The notes under the pieces are model-generated. The model was not told the origin of the DNA and searched no databases. It saw nothing but the letters and a program-made list of their open reading frames with translations. DNA of 9,212 nucleotides from an archaeon (GTDB taxonomy: Archaea; Iainarchaeota; Iainarchaeia; Iainarchaeales; CSSED10-239), in the NCBI GenBank assembly GCA_035387745.1, contig DAOOON010000024.1, positions 1 through 9,212 of the forward strand, given 5' to 3'. Of the stretch, positions 1 to 9,212 are shown piece after piece. Made by a program: the position numbers and the translations under genes. Each line of letters starts with the position of its first letter. Within the stretch, counting starts at the first letter, position 1.

Positions 1-3000
1 TTTTCTACTTCAATAAATGGATCTTCCATGTAAAGGGTTGCTGATTGTACGTTTATTTTTAAGTTCTTGTAGATGGTGGTTATTGGTGCATTATTGCTGT
101 TTAAGATTGAAACTTTTACTGGTATAAAATACCCTCCAGGAGTTTCTGGCTTTTTAATACCTGCAACAAGAGAGCTTTCTCCAAAATTAAAACTTAATTC
201 GTTTTCATTAAAGCCACTAAGATTGTTGTATTTTATATCTCCACAACCTTCAAAGGCATTTGGATTTGTTTCAATATCTTCACAGAAATTTAATCTAAAT
301 CTTCCAAGATCTGCACAGTTGTTCTTTACTGTGAGTTCTTTTACATCATAAGCATTTGTTTCTTTAGTAATAACAAACATGTCGTTTATCTTCTTACTAC
401 CATCATAGAAATCAATACAGTCTTGTATCTTTCTTATTGCTATGTTTGTTGTAAATGCTACGTCTTTTGTGGTATTTACATATTTTAGACCGTCGTTAGT
501 CTTAACTTGGCCATTAATGTAAATCTTTGTTTCTACATCTCCAAATTTCTTATCAAGAGAATAATAGGTAAGAACTGCACGATGTTCTCCTGGAGCTAAA
601 TTTTTTAATATTGTTGTGTAACTGCCTTCTGAAAGAGTTATGGTTTTTCCATCAACCATTAAATTATAACTACCAAAAATATCTTTAGAATTAACAATCT
701 TTGCTCTTATTGTGTCAAGAGCTAAACTTTGTTCGTCATTTCCTTTGACTTTACAATTATTAAATATATCAAAGCTAAAAGACACAGAATCATTACTGCT
801 TACAACTTGCTTCCAAGGATTATTTGCGCCTTGTATTACTAAACAATCATCTTCTTCTACGCCTTCGCCAACAGAGATCTTTAGGCTTATTGGAATATTA
901 AATGGATATTCTGATTCTGAGTTGTCTACAGAAACATAACCTATAATGTTACCAGTAATATTTAAAGTTTGAGTTAGCTCTTCTGCATCCTGAGAAGTTG
1001 CAATCTTTATTCTTAGATTTTCTTCACCGTTTGCTGGTATTACAATATTACCAACTTGGCTATTTAGAGATTGCTGTAATTTTGAAAGATTTAGGTAATT
1101 AGAATATCTAAAGCTAAAGCTATTGTCTTTAAATGGCTTTAATCTTAACGGATAATCTGTGTTATTTACTATTGTTAAAACCCTTTCTGTACCGTCAGGA
1201 TTTGCCTTGTTAATGTTAATTGTAAATGGCGTGTTGTCTGTTATTTTTGTATTATCCTGTTTTAAAGAAAGAATATTTTGTTCTACCGTAAATTCTACTG
1301 GCTCAGCATAATATCCGCTTTTATCAATATTAATAATTATTCTTTCGCCCATATTAAGAGATGGCATAGGTATTACTGCTTTACCATAATCGTTTGTTCT
1401 GATTGTTCCACTTGTTATCTTTATCTGTTGATTATTTGCTCTTCTTTGATAAATATTAACAAGAGCGCCAGCTACTGGTAAGCCGGACTCATCTAAAGAA
1501 ACAATTGTAAGATCAAATGGCTTATTTGGAACGATATTTTTTGGCTCATAATTAATAGTAAAAGGATATTGCTGAGATACATTAAAAGTTATAAACTCAT
1601 TATAAACAACAGATTGATTAGAAATAATCTTGTTCTGGAATCTGGAAGTTCCAAGAACTGCTGGCTTAATGTTTGTGTTAACATCAATTTTATCATAAAC
1701 ATTTATTTGTAAAGAATTTAGATATTCTGACGTAAATGGAATCTTGTTTCTTAACTGGTTTCCTGAAGACTCCCTAGCATTAAATCTGCCACCAGAAATA
1801 TTATAGCTAATAATATCAATTGCACTAGCAAGCATTTCTGTTGTATTTTCAACATTTGCTATTGATAGTCTGTTGTTATTGTAAACATTTGATTTTGCAT
1901 TAGTTAAAACATACTTTAGATTATATGCTTTATTTACAACTAGATTATTAATTTCTGCTAAATCATAAACAATATCTTCCTCAATATCTACATACTGGCC
2001 AGATAAACAAAAAGTCTCTGAACAGATTTCTGCAGTATCAATATAATATACTTTTTGATTTATTAAATCGTCTAATATTGGTGGAATAGTTGTAAACACA
2101 GAATAATAAATTGGTGCTGCTTGGCCCCTGTATGCTTGAACTGTTCCAACTGGAACTAATATTTCATAAACACCAACAGAAGCATTTACAAACTTTGCAT
2201 CAATTGCTTTTGCGTGAATGTCTGGTGTCACTATTGTTAAATTTTTATTACTATAATAACTAATATTTGCCTTTGAATCATACATTGTTCTTATATATAC
2301 TATATCCTCTTCTGCGGTTTCTTTATCTCCTGCTAAGAACCTCAAGCCAATATTTCCTGCTGTTGGATTGATTAGTCTAAACTTAAAATAGAACTTTGAA
2401 TTTTGAGTTAAATACTCTACTTTTTGATTTTGCTCATTAAACAGACCAACAAAGTCTGCTGTAAGAAGACTAACTGTTCCGGTTCTTATTAATTTTATGT
2501 CTTTGTTGATTGTTTCTCCACTAATTATTGGTATTAATTCTGTATAATAATCATAATATCCTTCTTTTGAAATCTTTGCATAAAGTATCTTGTCTGCTTT
2601 TATAGTTTTAGCATACTCTCCGTTCTGTGCTGCTTGGTCTGTTCCAATCTCTTCGCCTAATTGATTATATAATTTAATGCTTGCAAAGCTTATTGTTTCT
2701 TCATTTATGTTTTTAATATTAAATCTTATAGTTCCAGTTCCAACATTTATTGTCATTGGCAGATTTGTATCTGCTGGGGGTGTGTGAGTGAATTTTTGAG
2801 AAGAAGAAACTACATTTGTTTTTCTTAGTTTTATGAAATATCTGCCTTGAGCTATACTTTCAAAACTGACTTTCCCAGATTCATCAGTAACTAAAGAATC
2901 ATATCTTGTGTCCTGGAATTCGTTGTCTCCATTATAGATAATTAAAGTTGCACCAATTACTGGAAGGTTTTCTTCATCAATGACTGTAACATTAATATCT

Positions 3001-4292
3001 GAAACATTACTTACTGTTTCTTTTTCTAAATTTATAAGATAGCTGTTTGTATTTGGAGTAATCTCTCTAGTGGCTGCAAGATAGCCTGGGGCTCTAACTG
3101 TCAATGAATATTCTTTTGAAACATCTGTTCTAAATGAAATACTAGAACCTTCATAATTTTTAGTATCAACTGTTTGTAAACTGCCATTAGCATCAGTTAT
3201 CAATAATACTTGTGCTAAATCAGTAGAATCAAATTCTATACCAGTATCTAGATCTTTAACAATTACAGTTATGTCTCTTGTTTCTATTGTTGTATCGGTA
3301 TCTCCCGGATTTCCTTGCCCATTAACTGCTGGCATATCAATATTTATTTGTGTTTCTGTGTCTTTTGTTATAGTAAAAGTGCTTTCTGTGGATTCATATC
3401 TTAAGGAATCGTCTGTTGCAACAACTTTGTATTCTCCAATCTCAATATTAGCAAAAGATTTTGAACCCATTGTTGTTTGACCAGAAAAAACAGGATTAAT
3501 TCCGTCTTCTATTGTATATATCCTTAAAGTAATTCCATCAAGATAATTTGTGCCACTTTTTACTCTTATTGTTGCTCTACCTGTTCCTGTTACTGCGGCT
3601 TTTGGTGGAACATTTACAATGCCTGTTGCCTGATTTATTGGAATATTGCTACCAGAATAACTTGTACCAATTGCTGTTGCAACCATAGTTGTACAAGATA
3701 CTGGAACATCAAAGTTAGCTGTCCCGTTTGTTACTGTTGAAGAGGTTGGATTAATTGTTGTTCCATCTTGGCAAGTAATTGTTACATTTAGATTTTCAGA
3801 TATTGGTTGGCCATTTGATCCTACAAAAGTTAATATCTTTGATTGCGTACTTGGTAAATTAAAAATCAATACTGTAAAATTCTGTCTAGTCTTACTTAAA
3901 TCAATATCTGCTTCAAAATATTTATATCCTGCTTTATCAACAACAACAGAATAATTTCCAAACTTATTTAGTTCTAAAGAAAATTGACCATTATTCCCGG
4001 TTCTATAATTTTGAGTAAGGTCATTGCCATTATCTTTTAATTGAAACTCAAAATTTCTTAAGATTTCTCCACCGTCGTCTGCAAGTCCGATTGTAAATAG
4101 TATAGTTTGTGTGTTTTCTCCTGGTAGCCCAAATGGTTTAAATATAAGCAATAAAGCAACTATTATAATAATTATAAACAAAAAAAAAGAAGCTAATGGA
4201 TGTATTTTGTCAATTGGTTTTGTTAACAATTTGATTGGTATTCTGTTGTTTATTTTATCTAAAAAGCCTTGGTATTTTAAAGCAAATGACAT
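1..4292 (-). CDS. Giant membrane-anchored surface protein with tandem carboxypeptidase-regulatory-like beta-sandwich repeats; 3' end runs off the window (>=1430 aa)
   Basis: Hand reverse-complement translation in the frame of the ATG at 4292-4290 is open for 1430 consecutive sense codons down to nt 3, with no TAA/TAG/TGA. An in-frame TGA at 4301-4299 bounds the 5' end. It is absent from the ORF track, presumably because no stop codon lies inside the window. N-terminus: MSFALKYQGFLDKINNRIPIKLLTKPIDKIHPLASFFLFIIIIIVALLLIFKPFGLPGENTQ. Last residues in the window: ...NLKINVQSATLYMEDPFIEVE. A weak SD-like GGATGTGA lies at 4306-4299. An alternative TTG start at 4229 is possible but has no SD. Confidence 0.85.
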   Translation of the reverse strand, partial: MSFALKYQGFLDKINNRIPIKLLTKPIDKIHPLASFFLFIIIIIVALLLIFKPFGLPGENTQTILFTIGLADDGGEILRNFEFQLKDNGNDLTQNYRTGNNGQFSLELNKFGNYSVVVDKAGYKYFEADIDLSKTRQNFTVLIFNLPSTQSKILTFVGSNGQPISENLNVTITCQDGTTINPTSSTVTNGTANFDVPVSCTTMVATAIGTSYSGSNIPINQATGIVNVPPKAAVTGTGRATIRVKSGTNYLDGITLRIYTIEDGINPVFSGQTTMGSKSFANIEIGEYKVVATDDSLRYESTESTFTITKDTETQINIDMPAVNGQGNPGDTDTTIETRDITVIVKDLDTGIEFDSTDLAQVLLITDANGSLQTVDTKNYEGSSISFRTDVSKEYSLTVRAPGYLAATREITPNTNSYLINLEKETVSNVSDINVTVIDEENLPVIGATLIIYNGDNEFQDTRYDSLVTDESGKVSFESIAQGRYFIKLRKTNVVSSSQKFTHTPPADTNLPMTINVGTGTIRFNIKNINEETISFASIKLYNQLGEEIGTDQAAQNGEYAKTIKADKILYAKISKEGYYDYYTELIPIISGETINKDIKLIRTGTVSLLTADFVGLFNEQNQKVEYLTQNSKFYFKFRLINPTAGNIGLRFLAGDKETAEEDIVYIRTMYDSKANISYYSNKNLTIVTPDIHAKAIDAKFVNASVGVYEILVPVGTVQAYRGQAAPIYYSVFTTIPPILDDLINQKVYYIDTAEICSETFCLSGQYVDIEEDIVYDLAEINNLVVNKAYNLKYVLTNAKSNVYNNNRLSIANVENTTEMLASAIDIISYNISGGRFNARESSGNQLRNKIPFTSEYLNSLQINVYDKIDVNTNIKPAVLGTSRFQNKIISNQSVVYNEFITFNVSQQYPFTINYEPKNIVPNKPFDLTIVSLDESGLPVAGALVNIYQRRANNQQIKITSGTIRTNDYGKAVIPMPSLNMGERIIINIDKSGYYAEPVEFTVEQNILSLKQDNTKITDNTPFTININKANPDGTERVLTIVNNTDYPLRLKPFKDNSFSFRYSNYLNLSKLQQSLNSQVGNIVIPANGEENLRIKIATSQDAEELTQTLNITGNIIGYVSVDNSESEYPFNIPISLKISVGEGVEEDDCLVIQGANNPWKQVVSSNDSVSFSFDIFNNCKVKGNDEQSLALDTIRAKIVNSKDIFGSYNLMVDGKTITLSEGSYTTILKNLAPGEHRAVLTYYSLDKKFGDVETKIYINGQVKTNDGLKYVNTTKDVAFTTNIAIRKIQDCIDFYDGSKKINDMFVITKETNAYDVKELTVKNNCADLGRFRLNFCEDIETNPNAFEGCGDIKYNNLSGFNENELSFNFGESSLVAGIKKPETPGGYFIPVKVSILNSNNAPITTIYKNLKINVQSATLYMEDPFIEVE
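1275..1520 (-). repeat. Seventh CarboxypepD_reg-like module, separated from the first six by a 320-aa insert
   Basis: PFDLTIVSLDESGLPVAGALVNIYQRRANNQQIKITSGTIRTNDYGKAVIPMPSLNMGERIIINIDKSGYYAEPVEFTVEQ shows the same D..G.PV.GA.V / T...G / K.GY pattern. Confidence 0.6.
2481..4106 (-). repeat. Six consecutive ~80-87 aa beta-sandwich modules (protein-level tandem repeat, CarboxypepD_reg-like)
   Basis: Approximate module boundaries are 3861-4106, 3603-3842, 3330-3581, 3021-3278, 2742-3002 and 2481-2735. Module 5 is the clearest: SDINVTVIDEENLPVIGATLIIYNGDNEFQDTRYDSLVTDESGKVSFESIAQGRYFIKLRK. It fits the family pattern i.V.V.D..g.Pv.GA.v ... TD..G.f.f..l..G.Y.l.v.k.GY. Module 1 is TILFTIGLADDGGEILRNFEFQLKDNGNDLTQNYRTGNNGQFSLELNKFGNYSVVVDKAGYKYFEADIDL. 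The assignment is by motif recognition only; no HMM was run. Confidence 0.6.
4140..4193 (-). other. Signal-anchor / transmembrane helix of the giant protein (aa 34-51, ASFFLFIIIIIVALLLIF)
   Basis: An 18-residue uncharged hydrophobic stretch. It follows a Lys/Arg-containing 33-aa N-region and is followed by KPFGLPGEN. The positive-inside rule predicts N-in, with the bulk of the protein outside. Confidence 0.7.
4180..4188 (-). repeat. T9 homopolymer on the coding strand (A9 on + strand) within codons 35-38 (TCT TTT TTT TTG)
   Basis: Counted directly: c4179, a4180-a4188, g4189 on the + strand. Confidence 0.95.
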
Positions 4293-4330
4293 TATCTTTC
4301 ACATCCGTAAATATATATCTAAAATATATT

Positions 4331-4358
4331 TATAATTAAAGGAAATAAGGTATTTAAA
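4331..4358 (-). promoter_or_regulatory. Candidate promoter of the giant gene: TATA-box-like TTTAAATA (4358-4351) and TTTAATTATAAATA (4340-4327)
   Basis: Minus-strand spacer reads ...CTCACAGATACATTTAAATACCTTATTTCCTTTAATTATAAATATATTTTAGATATATATTTACGGATGTGAAAGATAATG. TTTAAATA matches the archaeal TATA consensus (TTTAWATA), 59-66 nt upstream of the ATG. The second element lies 35-48 nt upstream. In such AT-rich DNA these matches can arise by chance. Confidence 0.3.
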
Positions 4359-4370
4359 TGTATCTGTGAG

Positions 4371-4408
4371 GTTAAAAAGTTAATAAAAAAAGGGAAAGGA
4401 GAAAATAT
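4371..4408 (-). terminator. Hairpin-less oligo-T tracts immediately downstream of the 692-aa gene (possible archaeal-type termination signal)
   Basis: Minus strand after the TAA stop reads ATATTTTCTCCTTTCCCTTTTTTTATTAACTTTTTAAC, with a T7 run at 4391-4385 and a T5 run at 4378-4374. I could not find a convincing GC-rich stem-loop. Confidence 0.3.
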
Positions 4409-6487
4409 TTAAGGCTGCTTAGGATATTGCCAGGTCATACTTTCTGAACACCCGGTTTCTCCTGCTTTCCAACAGGATTCCTTTAATGGGCTTGGATATT
4501 CTCCTAAAATATAAGTATCTGCACCACTAAATATTCTGTTGTAAGGCCCATAAACAACAGCGGTGTTATATTCATTACATTTTTCTACACCGTAATAATT
4601 CTTTCCTTTATGCCTTACACAAACACATCTAAAGTGTGTTCCAACACCCGTATCAACACTATAATCTTGTATTATTGGATAGTTTTCTTTTATACAGGCT
4701 TTTCCTTTATTTGTGTAGATTATTTCATAATAATATTCATTTGTGACCACAGACCCAGTTTCACTTTCTGTTGTATCCCTTTTTGCTACGATACTTGGGA
4801 TGATTAATTGATCATCTGTATCAATATTTGCATTTAATCTTGATATTAATGATGCAATCTCGGAACCTTGATTAGGCATATTAATTAAATTATATTTTAA
4901 TTCAACACAAGTACTACAATAAAAATAATATAGTGATTTATAAACTTTTAATAATTTTTTATTATAAATGGTGTCTTTGTTTTTGAATATATCTAAGTAA
5001 AACTGAGAATAATAAATATTATTATCTGCGCCTTTATTTAAAATAAAAACGTATTTTTGAGTGTCTTTTGTTAGGCTATCTAAAGGCAAACTATAGCTGT
5101 TTGAATTAATTGTGTTAAAATTATTGACTCTTCCAAATTGATACATAGAGTTGATTGCCGAAATTATTTCGTTAGTTATTCTGTCTGCATTTTCTGAATT
5201 ATAATCAAATACTTTTATATAATTTACCTTATTAAAATACTCTGCGTCTAAATTAAAAGAAATATTAAGTGCACCATCTCCACTTACAATTTCATAAAAT
5301 TGTCCTGTATCGTCTAGAGCGGATGTAATGGATTCTGCTCCCCCGATAGAATAGGAAACAGTTTTATTTTTGTTTTCTATAATTTGGAAATCATAATCTT
5401 CGGGCAAATTAGAATTTAAAGTTACATTCAAATAATGATTAGTATAAATTATTCTTCCACTTCTTTCTTTTTTAAATAATAACACATAATAAACTCCTGA
5501 TGTTGTTGCCTCTAAATTAAAAGAATAATTTGAGCCGGTTCTTTTATCAAGATTTAGGGTGTCTTCAGAAACTAAATCTACAAACAAACTTTCTATTGAT
5601 TGTTTTATTGTATCTTTATTCTCTTCAGTAATTAAAACATAAGGATAAACAAAAAACTCGTCAAAACTTTCAGGAAGTGTAATATTAACTTGTAAATAGG
5701 TATCATCTATAGCCCAATTTATTTGACTATCTACTTTTTCAACATTATTAATTTGAGAATCTAATCCCCCAGTAGCATAATTATTTTCTGCAGTTTGATT
5801 TGATTCTTCTAAAGTCAATGCCGACAGTATGAGATTTGTATTTTCTGAATTTAGATGTTGCAAAAGGTTATTGCTAAATTTAATTTTAATAACTTCTGTA
5901 AATTCAGGATTTGCTAAATTTTCAGGGTTTTCTCCAAAATTTTCATAAGAATAAATTATAGTATATGCGACAGTATATTCTGAAAGCTCTTCTGTTTTAA
6001 TGGGAATTGATGTGACTGATGATTCTCCGGCGGTTTGTGCTCCAAAAACAACAGTGCCATCATTTCCAATATTTGTTTTTTGATTAACTACAATAGAAGA
6101 ACAAATAGTATTTTCTATTTCTAAATTGTTACAATAATCTGAAACTAATAGATTGCTATTTTGAGAATAAAAATCAGATATTAATTGATAAATTTCTGAA
6201 TCATTTTCAGTTTTAGAAAATATAAAAATAACATCTTTTGTTAAATTATTTTCTAACCAACTAGTATTGTATTTTAGATTAATTTCTGTTGGCGTTTGTC
6301 CTTCTGTTGCAGCGCCTGCAGAATTAGATTTAAAAATAGATATTTCTTCTAATATTCTCTGATTTGCTGACAGAGATTTGACTTCATAATTTTTTTCTGA
6401 AATTGCCACGGCTGAATAAACACTAGAAGAAAACACAATTAAAGATATAAAAATTATTAACAACTGAATTTTTTTATTTTTTATCAT
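4409..6487 (-). CDS. Secreted 692-aa protein of unknown function (three internal modules plus a Cys-rich C-terminal domain)
   Basis: ORF-track entry. ATG at 6487 lies 6 nt downstream of GGTG; stop is TAA at 4411-4409. N-terminus MIKNKKIQLLIIFISLIVFSSSVYS/AVAISEK is a canonical n-h-c signal peptide. I recognise no family. Confidence 0.85.
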   Translation of the reverse strand: MIKNKKIQLLIIFISLIVFSSSVYSAVAISEKNYEVKSLSANQRILEEISIFKSNSAGAATEGQTPTEINLKYNTSWLENNLTKDVIFIFSKTENDSEIYQLISDFYSQNSNLLVSDYCNNLEIENTICSSIVVNQKTNIGNDGTVVFGAQTAGESSVTSIPIKTEELSEYTVAYTIIYSYENFGENPENLANPEFTEVIKIKFSNNLLQHLNSENTNLILSALTLEESNQTAENNYATGGLDSQINNVEKVDSQINWAIDDTYLQVNITLPESFDEFFVYPYVLITEENKDTIKQSIESLFVDLVSEDTLNLDKRTGSNYSFNLEATTSGVYYVLLFKKERSGRIIYTNHYLNVTLNSNLPEDYDFQIIENKNKTVSYSIGGAESITSALDDTGQFYEIVSGDGALNISFNLDAEYFNKVNYIKVFDYNSENADRITNEIISAINSMYQFGRVNNFNTINSNSYSLPLDSLTKDTQKYVFILNKGADNNIYYSQFYLDIFKNKDTIYNKKLLKVYKSLYYFYCSTCVELKYNLINMPNQGSEIASLISRLNANIDTDDQLIIPSIVAKRDTTESETGSVVTNEYYYEIIYTNKGKACIKENYPIIQDYSVDTGVGTHFRCVCVRHKGKNYYGVEKCNEYNTAVVYGPYNRIFSGADTYILGEYPSPLKESCWKAGETGCSESMTWQYPKQP
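4412..4918 (-). other. Cys-rich C-terminal domain of the 692-aa protein (aa 524-692, 8 Cys)
   Basis: Cys at aa 524, 527 (CSTC), 598, 621, 623 (HFRCVCVRH), 637, 672 and 680. Only 2 Cys occur in the preceding 523 aa. Confidence 0.6.
4985..5695 (-). repeat. Two ~95-aa paralogous modules within the 692-aa protein (aa 265-357 and 406-501); a degenerate third copy lies at aa 40-107 (nt 6167-6370)
   Basis: Copy A: LQVNITLPESFDEFFVYPYVLITEENKDTIKQSIESLFVDL...SNYSFNLEATTSGVYYVLLFKKERSGRIIYTNHYLNVTL. Copy B: LNISFNLDAEYFNKVNYIKVFDYNSENADRITNEIISAINSM...SNSYSLPLDSLTKDTQKYVFILNKGADNNIYYSQFYLDIF. Copy 0: NQRILEEISIF...INLKYNTSWLENNLTKDVIFIFSKTENDSEIYQLISDFY. The block LTKD+[VY][IV]FI[FL].K.....IY recurs. 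Aligned by eye. Confidence 0.55.
6413..6487 (-). other. Sec-type signal peptide of the 692-aa protein (aa 1-25, predicted cleavage VYS/A)
   Basis: Basic n-region MIKNKK, hydrophobic core IQLLIIFISLIVF, and small residues at -3/-1 (V-Y-S before A). Confidence 0.7.
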
Positions 6488-6493
6488 ATTTTA

Positions 6494-6497
6494 CACC
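6494..6497 (-). promoter_or_regulatory. Shine-Dalgarno-like GGTG for the 692-aa gene
   Basis: Minus strand reads TAA CCGGTGTAAAAT ATG. GGTG is complementary to the conserved 16S 3' tail (CACCUCC), with 6 nt of spacing to the ATG. Confidence 0.5.
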
Positions 6498-6499
6498 GG

Positions 6500-6778
6500 T
6501 TAATTATTATCTACATTAATATTTTCATTAACATTTAAAGGAGTGTTTCGCACTATTATTTCTGGATTATAGTTTCTATTTACTAAGTCTTTATTTAGAT
6601 ATTGCGGACTTCTATTAATTTCTGTATTAGGGTCTTTTGCAGCATATTGATTATACATTAAGAAAATAAACGAAAATAACACAATAATTAATAAAATAAA
6701 CCAAAAAACAGAATGTTTTGATTTGTCTTTTACTTTTTTTAGTGTTATTTCTTTTTTCCTACTTTGTCTTCTATTCAT
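6500..6778 (-). CDS. Small (92 aa) single-pass membrane protein: basic N-terminus, one TM helix, Asn-rich exterior tail
   Basis: The ORF track lists 6500..6823 (107 aa) from a non-ATG start that overlaps the upstream gene by 44 nt. I prefer the ATG at 6778-6776. It lies 1 nt after the upstream TAA (TAAtATG), and AAGGA lies 5 nt upstream of it. Product: MNRRQSRKKEITLKKVKDKSKHSVFWFILLIIVLFSFIFLMYNQYAAKDPNTEINRSPQYLNKDLVNRNYNPEIIVRNTPLNVNENINVDNN. The TM helix is aa 23-42 (nt 6653-6712). Confidence 0.7.
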   Translation of the reverse strand: MNRRQSRKKEITLKKVKDKSKHSVFWFILLIIVLFSFIFLMYNQYAAKDPNTEINRSPQYLNKDLVNRNYNPEIIVRNTPLNVNENINVDNN

Positions 6779-6779
6779 A

Positions 6780-9212
6780 TTAATCCTTCTTTTCAGCAAT
6801 ATAATAGCCGCCTTGTCCAGCACTAAAATCTATATAATATTCTCCAGATTCGGTTTTTATAACAAAAATATTTGGATTATTATTTGTTTTTCCTGATAAT
6901 ATTGCTGGATTAGACCACAAATAAAAATTCTTTTCGTTGTTTGTATTTTCAAATCTGAAACAAATGTGATTATTCAATATTGAGGGATATCTTATGCCAC
7001 CAACTAATGGATTGTCTGTTGCTCCATAAATCATATAATTAAATCCGCTGGTGTTTATTTGTGCTTGATATTTCCCTAGCGTTTCTAGTTTTGAAGGCAA
7101 AGAATACAATATTTTATTATTCCTTATTTCTTTTCGTGAATCTGTATCTAATAAATTAAAATATAATTCTTTTTCAGATTCTATAAGCATCTGTGGTTTG
7201 TTGCCGCTGTCTTTAAAGTTATTAAATACAAACACACTAGTTTTTATTGGTGTTGTAAAATTATAGGTATGATCAGACGATAGATGGGTTGTAATTATTT
7301 GCGGAGTAGAATCGCTTGTTGGAATAAGACTTCTTAAAGCAATATTTGATTTTTTATAGTCTCCTCTTACAGAGTCATCATATACATCTATTGAAAATGC
7401 ATTTCCGGTTATGTCTTTAGAAGTTATTTGAAGTGGAATGATGTCTGCAAATTGGGAGTCTTGTATTTGCCCGTTTTGAGTTGTCTTTAATTCATAGATA
7501 TATCCGTCTTGAATATTTAATAAATCGGAATAATCAGAATATACTTTTATGTTGCTTGATTTTGTTTTAGCGTGTTGAGTAATACTTAAATCAAATGGAG
7601 TCTCTCCATAATCATTATATCTTGCATTAATGTTGATTGTAAAAAATAAATTATCTTTATATTCTAGGCGATTTTCGTAAATGTTTATTTTTGATTCAGA
7701 GATATCAGATAATTTTGATAATTTATAATTTGCTGTCTTTTTAGAATCATCAATATTTTCTAGATATAATAAATAAACATTTGGTTTATCTATGTTCTTT
7801 ATTTCTGAAGTGGCGTCTATATTATAAGTATAATCTTCTCTGTTACTTAAGAAGTATATTTCTGTTAGTATGTTATTTGTTTCTCCTGTTAAATCACCAA
7901 ATGGTTTAAGATTTACAAGCGATGGATTTAAAGCAACTCCGTAGTATATATCGAGACTACTTAAAAATGCTAACATATATTCCATATCTTCAAGTAAGAT
8001 TGTTTCTTTATCTGGTTTTGTAGAACTTAAAAAATTGTTTGCTGTAAAAGATATATAGGTTTTATTCGCTATATCTATTACATAGATATTTAAATCGTCA
8101 TTTAGCAGTTCTTTTGTTTTAAGTAAATACTCTTCTTTCTTAGAACTATCAAAATTAATTCTCATGATTGTTAACTTTTGTAATTCTTTTGGTACAGAAT
8201 TATTTAAATCTATCTTTAATCTGCGTATTATTTCTTTAGTATTGCTATTTCTTTCTTCTATTGGTTGTAAATTTATTTTAAACATATCGTCTTGATATTC
8301 TGAAATTAATGTTTCATCAATTACTGGGTCTACCGCTGGATTTAATCTAGAGTCTAGTATTGAGGGCCTTGCTAAATGTAGTTCTATAAGTTTAAAATCG
8401 TTTAATTTGAATTTAATGTCTTCTAATTCTATATAGTTATTATTATTTAGTTCTTTTATCTTTTTATTTAGTGCTAATCTAAATTGGTCTTGATCACAAT
8501 AGTTCTCACCATAGTCGCAGGAATTATAGTTGATCTGAGATTCTGACCATTCGAATAGTATCTTATCAAATCCATATTTCATATATTCTATTAAACCGGT
8601 CCTACCATAATCTTCATTAAATCCTTTAGGATCAAAACATAGGCCTTCGCCGTTGTATTCTACGTAATCTTCTAAATCAAACTTTGTAGTTAGTGATGAA
8701 TTCTCTCTTCCTAATAACTTATTAATATTTATTTTTATTTTGATATTTGCAACTTCTTTAGATTTATTATATATCTTAAATATCTTTGGTTCAGGGTCAT
8801 TACTTTCTGTTAAATAAAGGTCAGAAATGTTTTCAGTAGATAGTATTGTTTCTGGAGGTCCAAAGGTTATCAAACACATCGAATATTGCTTAGATCTTAA
8901 TAGTTTTAATTCAATATTATAATTTGGTTTTATAACATAACCAGAATTAACTTCTTGTAATCCTTTTGTTCTTATATTGTCTGGATTAATATTAACTAAA
9001 TTCTCTTTGCTTTCTTTTATAGTAATTAAATCCTTTATGTCTGAATAATTACCTTTAATACACCCTCTGTATTTTCCGGTTTCTTCATCTTTAATAAATG
9101 CTAAATTGCTAAAGGTATTCCCTAAATCAAGATAAACGTCCTTCTCTTGAATATCCCCTCTAAATCTTGGAACTTGTAATTTATTGAAATCTACATCAGA
9201 ATCCAATTTTAT
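6780..9212 (-). CDS. Large (>=808 aa) protein of unknown function; 5' end probably outside the window
   Basis: The ORF track starts it at a TTG at 9206, but the two upstream in-frame codons (ATA AAA, 9212-9207) are also open, so the frame reaches the window edge. Stop is TAA at 6782-6780. No signal peptide is visible in the available N-terminus, and there is no TM helix or C-terminal anchor. I recognise no family or catalytic motif. Confidence 0.8.
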   Translation of the reverse strand: MKLDSDVDFNKLQVPRFRGDIQEKDVYLDLGNTFSNLAFIKDEETGKYRGCIKGNYSDIKDLITIKESKENLVNINPDNIRTKGLQEVNSGYVIKPNYNIELKLLRSKQYSMCLITFGPPETILSTENISDLYLTESNDPEPKIFKIYNKSKEVANIKIKININKLLGRENSSLTTKFDLEDYVEYNGEGLCFDPKGFNEDYGRTGLIEYMKYGFDKILFEWSESQINYNSCDYGENYCDQDQFRLALNKKIKELNNNNYIELEDIKFKLNDFKLIELHLARPSILDSRLNPAVDPVIDETLISEYQDDMFKINLQPIEERNSNTKEIIRRLKIDLNNSVPKELQKLTIMRINFDSSKKEEYLLKTKELLNDDLNIYVIDIANKTYISFTANNFLSSTKPDKETILLEDMEYMLAFLSSLDIYYGVALNPSLVNLKPFGDLTGETNNILTEIYFLSNREDYTYNIDATSEIKNIDKPNVYLLYLENIDDSKKTANYKLSKLSDISESKINIYENRLEYKDNLFFTININARYNDYGETPFDLSITQHAKTKSSNIKVYSDYSDLLNIQDGYIYELKTTQNGQIQDSQFADIIPLQITSKDITGNAFSIDVYDDSVRGDYKKSNIALRSLIPTSDSTPQIITTHLSSDHTYNFTTPIKTSVFVFNNFKDSGNKPQMLIESEKELYFNLLDTDSRKEIRNNKILYSLPSKLETLGKYQAQINTSGFNYMIYGATDNPLVGGIRYPSILNNHICFRFENTNNEKNFYLWSNPAILSGKTNNNPNIFVIKTESGEYYIDFSAGQGGYYIAEKKD
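6784..6788 (-). promoter_or_regulatory. Shine-Dalgarno AAGGA for the 92-aa gene, embedded in the last codons of the upstream gene
   Basis: Minus strand reads GCT GAA AAG AAG GAT TAA T ATG, with AAGGA 5 nt upstream of the ATG at 6778. Confidence 0.55.

Follow-up and report, generated by a model that had tools for sequence, protein, structure and literature searches.

A candidate surface-protein island with an exchangeable RCC1-type cassette in an Iainarchaeota archaeon

The stretch of DNA considered here, contig DAOOON010000024.1 of the archaeal assembly GCA_035387745.1, is 9,212 nucleotides (nt) long with 25-33% GC, and carries four long open reading frames on its minus strand, genes A to D, and otherwise nothing substantial. 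This whole stretch is called the window below. The window and the related loci are best explained as part of a recombining chromosomal island for surface or adhesion proteins of an Iainarchaeota archaeon, in which the exchange of cassettes varies the cell surface; we put the probability of this reading at about 55%. Genes A, B and C form a cassette with a putative promoter of its own that is gained and lost between genomes, whereas D belongs to the conserved backbone of the island, together with a further gene, E, that lies beyond the window. The original prediction had taken the four genes as a single module, and in this respect it has to be revised.

The genes follow each other closely. The 3′ part of A (6780-9212, minus strand, 810 codons and a TAA stop, open at the window edge) is separated by 1 nt from B (6500-6778, minus strand, 92 amino acids (aa)) in the arrangement TAA-T-ATG. 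B is 12 nt from C (4409-6487, minus strand, 692 aa), and C is 116 nt from the 5′ part of D (3-4292, minus strand, 1,430 codons), which runs off the window edge. These positions and the 1-nt and 12-nt spacers agree with the four co-directional minus-strand genes of the original prediction. Its view that the products are exported or membrane proteins also held, by hydropathy scan and inspection, for all four of them, including A once the N-terminus had been recovered. As it had supposed, searches with Pfam, NCBIfam and PHROGs found no enzyme or other catalytic domain and no nucleotide-binding or DNA-binding domain in the window-encoded parts of the four products; a significant match was obtained for one family alone, CarboxypepD_reg/prealbumin-like, in D. 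Scans for tRNA and Rfam features found none in the window.

Frame lengths between 692 and over 1,400 codons at 29% GC, low ratios of nonsynonymous to synonymous substitution (dN/dS) and recurrence in public data identify these as real genes and not chance reading frames. The window's proteins are present on at least 21 public contigs. In the unsaturated comparisons between strains dN/dS is 0.06-0.30 over all four genes (0.12-0.16 for A, 0.17-0.20 for D), except in one pair of nearly identical C genes, where substitutions are all but absent (0.77 at a dS of 0.002). All four genes are under purifying selection. Plus-strand frames of 65-92 aa are antisense to A-D and have no support. Proteins identical to B and C are found in a metagenome-assembled genome (MAG) labelled 'archaeon' (HOZ36016.1 and HOZ36017.1, both hypothetical) and also in GCA_964645375.1. 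The AT-rich DPANN source that had been suspected is borne out by the public labels 'Candidatus Diapherotrites archaeon', carried by one contig with a D orthologue, and 'Candidatus Iainarchaeum', on contigs of up to 521 kb; a taxonomy look-up places Candidatus Iainarchaeum in the phylum Iainarchaeota of the kingdom Nanobdellati, i.e. in DPANN.

Cassette turnover between genes E and D

Gene orders were derived from hidden Markov model (HMM) annotation of all fetched loci, which are referred to by L numbers. In L007 the order is E-A-B-C-D. The close strain L006 (A 95% and D 98% identical between the two) differs by one extra pair of A-like and C-like genes and reads A-like, C-like, A, B, C, D. 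L017 (A 56%, C 38% identical) has the order C-like, A, B-like, C, D, and L030 (C 32% identical) A-like, B-like, C. In L016, L020 and L021 the genes are E, A-like, C-like, D, and in L031 A-like, short C-like, D. L013 (D 77% identical) carries an A-like gene for 2,354 aa and one for a 1,951-aa protein with the six-cysteine (6-Cys) domain described below, after which E is directly followed by D and then by genes for 136, 137, 792, 1980 and 178 aa. The order E/A-like/C-like/D occurs in five species-level lineages, complete in L007, L016, L020 and L021 and with its A-like/C-like/D part in L017, L031 and L006, and the A-B-C triplet with the 1-nt coupling is found in four lineages (the window group, L005, L017 and L030). 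The succession of large, small transmembrane, large and giant protein that had been pointed out for the window is kept in related genomes.

Because L013 has nothing between E and D while other loci carry A-like/C-like pairs there, the E-D interval is a cassette site for zero to two such pairs, and the window holds the RCC1/B type. Among the A-like proteins the N-terminal head varies and a C-terminal module of ~600 aa is conserved; the C-like proteins combine a variable body with the conserved 6-Cys C-terminal domain. B is absent from most A-like/C-like cassettes. E and D are the conserved backbone of an island that is much larger than the window and consists of giant genes, many for proteins of ~2,000 aa.

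The window's cassette is bracketed by a direct repeat. An element of 66-72 nt at 4332-4403 (minus strand) starts with an oligo-T run right after the preceding stop codon, which is followed by the TATA-like sequence ACATTTAAATAC at 4350-4361. The other copy is found beyond the window, upstream of A; in L006 and L007 the two copies are 8,544 bp apart and 89-91% identical, and A-B-C is the 8.5-kb cassette between them. The TATA-like motif occurs nowhere but before A and D, at a distance of 57-70 nt. Upstream of D the element is kept in L013, L016, L017, L020 and L021, although some of the D proteins are only 50% identical. It is followed by a D-specific leader (4293-4331, minus strand) with a second TATA-like motif, TATAAATATATTTTAG (4319-4334), and a Shine-Dalgarno-like GGATGTGA (4299-4306) before the ATG; a leader function is suggested by its conservation. 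In archaea, oligo-T tracts act as terminators and the TATA box follows TTTAWATA. Conservation and this consensus together point to a terminator followed by a promoter in the 66-72-nt element. With a copy before each, A-B-C and D are therefore read as putative separate transcription units with duplicate promoters. A scan for bacterial σ70 promoters gave 22 sites against 20.2 expected, but it uses a bacterial consensus and is uninformative for an archaeon. Template and variable repeats in the style of diversity-generating retroelements were not present among the direct repeats of L006 and L007.

In such an arrangement transcription of A-B-C and of D would begin at separate copies of one promoter, and a whole cassette could be lost or inserted when these copies recombine; a precise deletion would give the arrangement of L013. 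The duplicated promoter/terminator elements would in this way offer a simple recombination route to strain-level surface variation. Synonymous divergence (dS) between the window and L006 is uneven along the cluster: it is 0.26 in A and 0.08 in D, but does not exceed 0.01 in B and C. This mosaic therefore indicates recombination between strains, and the segment of B and C (4412-6778) looks like the result of a recent recombination or sweep involving the window strain and L006.

Viral or mobile-element cargo, with structural or receptor-binding proteins as products, could likewise show giant repeat proteins, a content that varies between strains and direct repeats at the cassette ends, and phage FN3 and tail proteins are listed by Foldseek for the models discussed below. 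The BFVD matches, however, are generic FN3 domains found with a low-confidence model. No PHROG family is matched (only noise at E >= 0.016), C, the A-type module and the D/E-type module have no confirmed relatives in 2.9 million IMG/VR contigs, and integrase, capsid, terminase and tRNA genes were not found. The flanking repeat is a duplicate of a putative promoter/terminator and not an att site. The affinity to phages that would have contradicted the original prediction thus did not appear in PHROGs or in the viral-contig scans. Because the island lies within 130-521-kb contigs of cellular MAGs and lacks PHROG matches and IMG/VR relatives, the locus is chromosomal and not viral, and cargo of either kind is a highly improbable explanation.

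Proteins and modules of the island

Gene A had been described as an orphan from its visible part. On the longer contigs L006, L007 and L008 full-length A has 2,022 aa, of which the window encodes the last 810 residues. It starts with the signal peptide MRFKNTILILFIVIINLSFLPLFFA, followed by QDN, and continues with an RCC1 propeller (aa 26-410, upstream of the window), a stalk of divergent repeats of ~150-190 aa and a C-terminal module of ~630 aa. The propeller consists of seven tandem repeats of ~50 aa (PF00415/PF13540/PF25390); for the gene in L006 (3931-9999) Pfam reports WD40_RLD at 253 bits (cut-off 150; 6.8e-75), RCC1_2 in seven stretches and RCC1 in six. Pfam finds nothing in the part of A that the window encodes. 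This part begins in the last stalk repeat (8658-9212, minus strand; full-length aa ~1208-1397), which in a phmmer comparison with full-length A matches aa 888-1044 at 2.9e-19 and weaker copies besides; self-comparison by BLAST detected no repeats in A or D. Far from being an orphan, A combines a seven-blade RCC1 propeller with a C-terminal part that defines a protein family. A word-indexed protein search with the window part of A returned one 30% relative and missed its own 2,022-aa protein. Low-complexity queries rich in N, K and I seem to fill the candidate list, and negative results of word-indexed searches with these proteins carry little weight.

The A-type C-terminal module (6783-8681, minus strand), delimited by alignments and HMM annotation, is ~630 aa long and ends ...C.F....W.NP. 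In a survey of one genome per GTDB species it was found at 13 loci, all in archaeal MAGs, several of which are named Candidatus Iainarchaeum or Candidatus ainarchaeum; it has been seen only in MAGs of this Iainarchaeota type. Sequence and profile searches gave no Pfam or PDB relative. The module is 28-31% identical to that of the upstream paralogue in L006 (7e-38) and similarly close to a 1,097-aa protein of L016. A further match is P0010, a protein of 1,288 aa with a papain-like Peptidase_C1 head, the gene of which (L012 1751-5617) lies between a Peptidase_M48 gene and NurA, outside the giant-gene islands. Solitary A-module proteins of 1,570 or 1,657 aa are encoded among small ordinary genes at L024 7961-12673 and L025 9161-14134, in the GTDB MAGs AMR_MDS_3992 and AMR_MDS_2477, respectively. 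The protein of L024 matches a YkuD L,D-transpeptidase above the cut-off (6.8e-16) and a glucosaminidase below it (3.4e-4). Both would be directed at peptidoglycan, which in a DPANN archaeon hints at action on bacterial cell walls.

Such relatives lend some colour to a role in inter-microbial conflict or predation, comparable to polymorphic toxins or to the VARTIG loci, where the modules would deliver variable effector heads and the small or accessory genes would encode partners or immunity proteins. Besides the A-module paralogues with Peptidase_C1 (P0010) or with YkuD and a weak glucosaminidase (L024), this would agree with the hypervariable hydrophobic block of D, with the recombination mosaic between strains, and with the position of a variable cassette locus adjoining a giant Ig-domain protein, as in VARTIG (PMC8416519). 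The window and island proteins, however, have no toxin, nuclease, immunity or thioester (CxEQ) signature. Their N-terminal part varies and the C-terminal module is conserved, which is the reverse of polymorphic toxins and VARTIG. Moreover, the head encoded at the window's locus is an RCC1 propeller, a binding fold rather than an effector, and B, placed between A and C, bears no likeness to immunity proteins. A conflict role is therefore considered unlikely.

The protease and cell-wall-active domains in A-module proteins of other genomes are equally relevant to host-independent substrate capture or scavenging, in which surface-tethered binding (RCC1, Ig-like) and hydrolytic heads on a common module would gather polymers or cell debris in anaerobic digesters. 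Neighbouring genes upstream have the carbohydrate-enzyme-associated domains CHB_HEX_C and Fn3_assoc, and a weaker dependence on hosts than in other DPANN has been proposed for Iainarchaeota. Against this, no hydrolase or carbohydrate-binding module is encoded by the window's four genes, no linked transporter genes occur in the loci examined, and the variability of the cassettes is more typical of recognition surfaces. We consider substrate capture an improbable explanation of the locus.

The modules of A, D and E open with a common junction domain. In A this cysteine-containing domain of ~75 aa lies at 8442-8675 (minus strand) and reads C..G..G.TG..KYGFDK..F.W...C.YG.YYCDQDQF. In the A-like proteins, D and E the motif C..G..G.TG..(L/F)(P/D)K..F.W...C..(Y/F)CDxxQ(L/F) occurs exactly once, at the start of the C-terminal module, and each module ends C...(F/W/Y).NP. 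A joint HMM of the motif has one match in every A-like protein, D, E and other island giant (1e-11 to 1e-33). This HMM was seeded from both the A-like and the D/E groups, and only its non-seed matches are independent: they occur at 1e-11 to 1e-17 in L028 (2,654 aa), in L029 and in the E-like protein of L026, proteins that mix A-type and D/E-type features. Alignment of the A family with the D/E family by hhalign gave a probability of 11% with a first, smaller set and, with enlarged alignments, of 76.6% (E 2.1e-5), confined to the junction region. Homology of the A-type and D/E-type modules over their whole length was considered as well, but the enlarged alignments supported the junction domain only, and it is not proven. 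In the giants of L019 and L022 an A-type module closes a protein that begins like D and has Ig arrays. From these sequence relationships we concluded that the giant surface proteins would belong to one lineage-specific family, in which the two module types are interchangeable as ends. We propose an Iainarchaeota junction-domain family in which C-x-G-x-G-x-TG...W...C...[YF]CDxxQ[LF] opens a module of 600-700 aa that ends C...[FWY]-x-NP; A of the window, the D and E orthologues and the other island giants all have these features.

Full-length D orthologues have 2,480-2,514 aa, are 50-76% identical and lie on contigs of 130-521 kb, with examples of 428 kb and 521 kb. A hydropathy scan finds a polar stretch of 32 aa at the start of D, predicted to be cytoplasmic, and a transmembrane segment or signal anchor at aa 33-51 (4140-4196). 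It is followed by ~1,400 aa of prealbumin/CarboxypepD_reg/Ig-like domains, within which the window ends. The window part matches PF13620 with 80.2 bits (cut-off 32.3) and PF17802 with 50.2 bits (cut-off 23.1), with 1.5e-22 for CarboxypepD_reg, which scores 1e-21 to 1e-22 over the searches with D; the best stretch, prealbumin/CarboxypepD_reg-like, covers aa 433-513 (2754-2996, minus strand). Beyond the window D continues with a hypervariable Gly/Ala-rich hydrophobic block and a C-terminal module of ~700 aa that is 50-77% identical across species and homologous to E (5e-41). E is a conserved protein of 979 aa, 55-83% identical across species; it consists of a signal peptide, a hydrophobic segment rich in Gly and a D-type module of ~700 aa.

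The Gly/Ala-rich block of D (aa ~1480-1600) is wholly different in sequence and length between orthologues, even in strains that are ~97% identical elsewhere; L001 and L006 diverge abruptly just past the window end. In L002 (9480-9787 of JGI Ga0116242_10018247; window ~244-308) 65 nt of D are repeated and D is split into calls of 1,355 aa and 103 aa. Other identical contigs do not have this repeat, which probably arose in assembly or else reflects a frameshift of this strain. A conserved motif of ~35 aa, predicted to be cytoplasmic, ..YY.LEDKYY.F..K....YK..D.I(D/E)K..PSF, stands directly before the signal anchor in giants of L013, L018, L019, L022, L026, L028 and L029. D has a divergent version (4197-4292), KYQ.FLDKINNR.PIK.LTKPIDKIHPLASF. 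The motif has no Pfam match and could be a targeting or docking signal.

In E (L007 751-3690 and orthologues) aa 27-85 comprise, past the cleavage site, a variable Gly-rich stretch and then a conserved hydrophobic helix, NP...G..G...S.Y..Y. It is pure speculation to note that this part superficially resembles membrane-inserting segments of fusion proteins. The gene upstream of E (L007 3-722, L016 3-587) encodes a protein in which CHB_HEX_C_1 and Fn3_assoc are matched at about 1e-12 and the C-terminus is rich in Cys, and E starts 20-40 nt past it, with an AAAGGTG Shine-Dalgarno-like motif. This spacing suggests that the two genes are a further coupled unit of the island.

B has a strongly basic N-terminus, one transmembrane segment at aa 24-42 (6653-6709) and a tail of ~50 aa according to the hydropathy scan. 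It is predicted to be bitopic, with the N-terminus in the cytoplasm and the tail outside. Its ATG is 1 nt past the stop of A in the context GGATTAATATG, and B-like genes with the same TAATATG junction hold the equivalent position in L005, L017 and L030 (phmmer 5e-49, 1.8e-8 and 3.5e-8). A 107-aa version starting from a GTG at 6823, overlapping the end of A, was rejected, as every public call and the homologues of L005, L017 and L030 start from the ATG at 6778. Weak matches of B to Sigma_reg_N, LptC, CrgA and MAG1140 are all below the cut-offs and transmembrane-driven noise, and the public label 'cell division protein FtsL' finds no support.

C starts 12 nt past the stop of B, with GGTG before its ATG, and has a signal-peptide-like segment (6413-6487) that ends in VYS followed by A. 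It continues with three α/β or β-sandwich-like repeats and closes with the 6-Cys domain (4424-4792, minus strand, ~120 aa; ...YP...[FY]RCVC...YYGVEKC...GPYN...YPSPL..CWK...TGC...W). The six cysteines are invariant in seven sequences. An HMM of the domain matches C-like proteins adjoining A-like genes in L006, L013, L016, L017, L020, L021, L030 and L031. Relatives of C itself are rare: an exhaustive HMMER search found only six among 1.84 billion representative proteins, and the word-indexed search only C itself and one 79% relative.

The structure prediction that had been proposed as a check could be carried through for C and the C-terminal unit of D, but the AlphaFold2 (AF2) models are of low confidence. 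For C the mean predicted local distance difference test score (pLDDT) is 51, with three similar β/α/β units at 60-80, and for the D unit it is 37; neither model gives a defined fold. Foldseek with the C model retrieves only tandem FN3/Ig/MG arrays at a template modelling score (TM-score) of ~0.1, and for both models the only structural signal is β-sandwich/FN3/MG/MSCRAMM-like. For C this weakly supports β-sandwich-like extracellular repeats and nothing more. PDB searches with C, A and the two family profiles (A-type and D/E-type) gave nothing significant; a match to pestivirus E2 at E = 0.43 was rejected.

Large exported β-sandwich proteins from adjacent genes, including the well conserved E (55-83%), could in principle build the S-layer itself, with D and/or E, maybe also A and C, in the lattice and B as a SlaB-like membrane stalk. 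But no S-layer family is matched, including DUF1608/MSTP, and a survey preprint names a different, 1,039-aa MSTP-like protein for Iainarchaeota. With its 92 aa and N-proximal transmembrane segment B offers no stalk, and it is missing from most cassettes. A lattice protein should not occur as zero to two divergent cassettes between close strains, and the island encodes many giants of ~2,000 aa instead of one or two abundant subunits. There is thus little to favour an S-layer over the reading of a recombining surface or adhesion island.

A possible working of the island

If the surface or adhesion island is accepted as the working explanation, all products would be exported by the Sec route. D and E would sit in the archaeal membrane and project long β-sandwich stalks. 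A would be secreted as a fibril, with a repeat stalk tipped by an RCC1 propeller that binds protein or glycan, and would be held on the cell through the C-terminal module, which shares the ~75-aa junction domain with the D/E module. B could be a cassette-specific membrane partner, and C an accessory partner. Cassette exchange and mosaic recombination would then produce strain-specific surfaces that serve to adhere to partner cells or substrates and/or to escape from viruses.

Several points weigh against this explanation. Localisation, module-based retention and the binding partner are all deduced from sequence. The AF2 models are poor (mean pLDDT 37 and 51) and the Foldseek matches generic, with TM-scores of at most 0.14. 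Homology between A and D/E covers only the ~75-aa junction domain and the short C-terminal motif (E 0.003). The promoters and terminators are assigned from sequence conservation and the archaeal consensus and not from mapped transcripts. N-glycosylation sequons are not enriched (z −1.0 to +1.6). The A-module paralogues with protease or cell-wall-enzyme domains in other genomes would fit a role in attack or feeding. The original prediction had spoken of host-attachment machinery, which would be one interpretation of these genes; to our knowledge no host of Iainarchaeota has been demonstrated, and 'host attachment' may therefore not apply.

A more far-reaching scheme, which we regard as improbable as a whole, would be a modular display and contact system specific to Iainarchaeota. 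In it the ~650-aa module, not described before and with two subtypes linked by the junction domain, would dock swappable heads onto the membrane-embedded D and E; the heads known so far include the RCC1 propeller, the papain-like protease, the L,D-transpeptidase/glucosaminidase domains and the Ig arrays. The Gly-rich hypervariable hydrophobic segments of D and E would insert in the membrane of the partner cell and be the physical basis of DPANN-host contact or cytoplasmic bridges, and cassette swaps at the duplicated promoters would set partner specificity.

How DPANN archaea build their surface and make contact with other cells is largely obscure, and for Iainarchaeota essentially nothing is known. 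What is new here are the uncharacterised modules and the promoter-bracketed architecture of the cassette. The handles offered are a backbone of E and D with a defined cassette site, and three new modules that have no Pfam or PDB relatives. If retention by the module is true, the lineage would display binding and lytic heads throughout, and candidate proteins for the recognition of host or prey would be at hand. If the island merely adds further adhesin-like proteins, its value lies mainly in annotation, in naming families that are 'hypothetical' in many MAGs. Surface islands of this kind are to be expected in DPANN genomes; the present locus is well defined and conserved, and the function proposed for it is putative.

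Comparison with known systems

The locus stands outside VARTIG, SlaA/SlaB, MSTP S-layers, polymorphic toxins, α2-macroglobulins and archaeosortase substrates, as a defining feature of each is missing. The S-layer tile DUF1608 has no Pfam match in A, B, C, D, E or other island proteins (E up to 0.01-1). According to the survey preprint the S-layer protein of Iainarchaeota is the MSTP-like A0A2G9N319 of 1,039 aa. Pfam and NCBIfam detect no toxin or immunity family, and the C-termini, variable in polymorphic toxins, are the conserved parts here. No CxEQ thioester motif of α2-macroglobulins occurs in island proteins of more than 600 aa, where MG4 and bMG3 are found below threshold only. For an archaeosortase signal of the PGF-CTERM type, A, C, E and the D orthologues lack a C-terminal hydrophobic segment and an NCBIfam match.

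The analogy to SlaA/SlaB of Sulfolobales, raised in the original prediction, did not stand up. Adjacent genes for a large extracellular and a membrane-anchored protein are common to both. SlaB, however, is a stalk partner of ~400-500 aa with a C-terminal transmembrane anchor and an extended coiled-coil/β-sandwich stalk, whereas B has 92 aa, an N-proximal transmembrane segment, a tail of 50 aa and no predicted stalk. No sequence similarity and no S-layer family match were detected. Moreover, strains can differ in having the cassette or not, and separate anchors are present in D and E. SlaA and SlaB are also absent from the Foldseek lists of the low-confidence models.

The long prealbumin/Ig/MG-like arrays, which would project a distal binding region, recall the MSCRAMMs CNA and FnBPA, the extenders of RTX ice-binding adhesins and the MG-domain proteins of the α2-macroglobulin/complement type, which give the top Foldseek matches. 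These likenesses have TM-scores of at most 0.14 on low-confidence models, and no sortase/LPXTG, RTX or thioester feature accompanies them. Unlike in bacterial giant adhesins, anchoring here would depend on an N-terminal signal anchor and an internal hydrophobic block. For the head of A a parallel is BLIP-II of Streptomyces, an extracellular protein-binding propeller of seven RCC1-like blades. A likewise has a secreted seven-blade RCC1-type propeller as a putative binding platform, but as the head of a multidomain protein of 2,022 aa.

Among DPANN symbionts, the giant SPEARE proteins of a Nanohaloarchaeum contain protease, adhesion and restriction domains. Nanobdella aerobiophila has an Ig-like S-layer and lectin/pectin-lyase-like proteins (10.1101/2023.10.27.564410), and diversified surface proteins are described for Nanoarchaeota (PMC6142677). 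As in these organisms, many kb of a small genome are devoted to very large, exported, fast-evolving proteins that are presumed to act in cell-cell contact and lack sequence homology to characterised families. No sequence relationship to the symbiont proteins was detected, and the proteins described here have the RCC1 propeller and new modules and are known from their genes alone.

The closest described kind are the archaeal loci for large secreted surface proteins with Ig, PKD and CARDB domains, which include the hypervariable VARTIG loci of Thermococcales (Makarova et al. 2021, PMC8416519). In VARTIG the hypervariable C-terminal Ig domain of a giant protein is followed by variable downstream genes (PMC8416519). 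Here, by contrast, the C-terminal module of the giant D is conserved and the variable unit is the whole cassette upstream of it. VARTIG is restricted to Thermococcales, whereas the present taxon is Iainarchaeota and its A-type, D/E-type, junction and 6-Cys modules are without Pfam or PDB counterparts. Like the loci of that survey (PMC8416519), the island encodes co-directional giant β-sandwich secreted proteins with small uncharacterised partners, is lineage-restricted, recombining and cassette-like, and invites the same hypotheses of adhesion, conflict or recognition.

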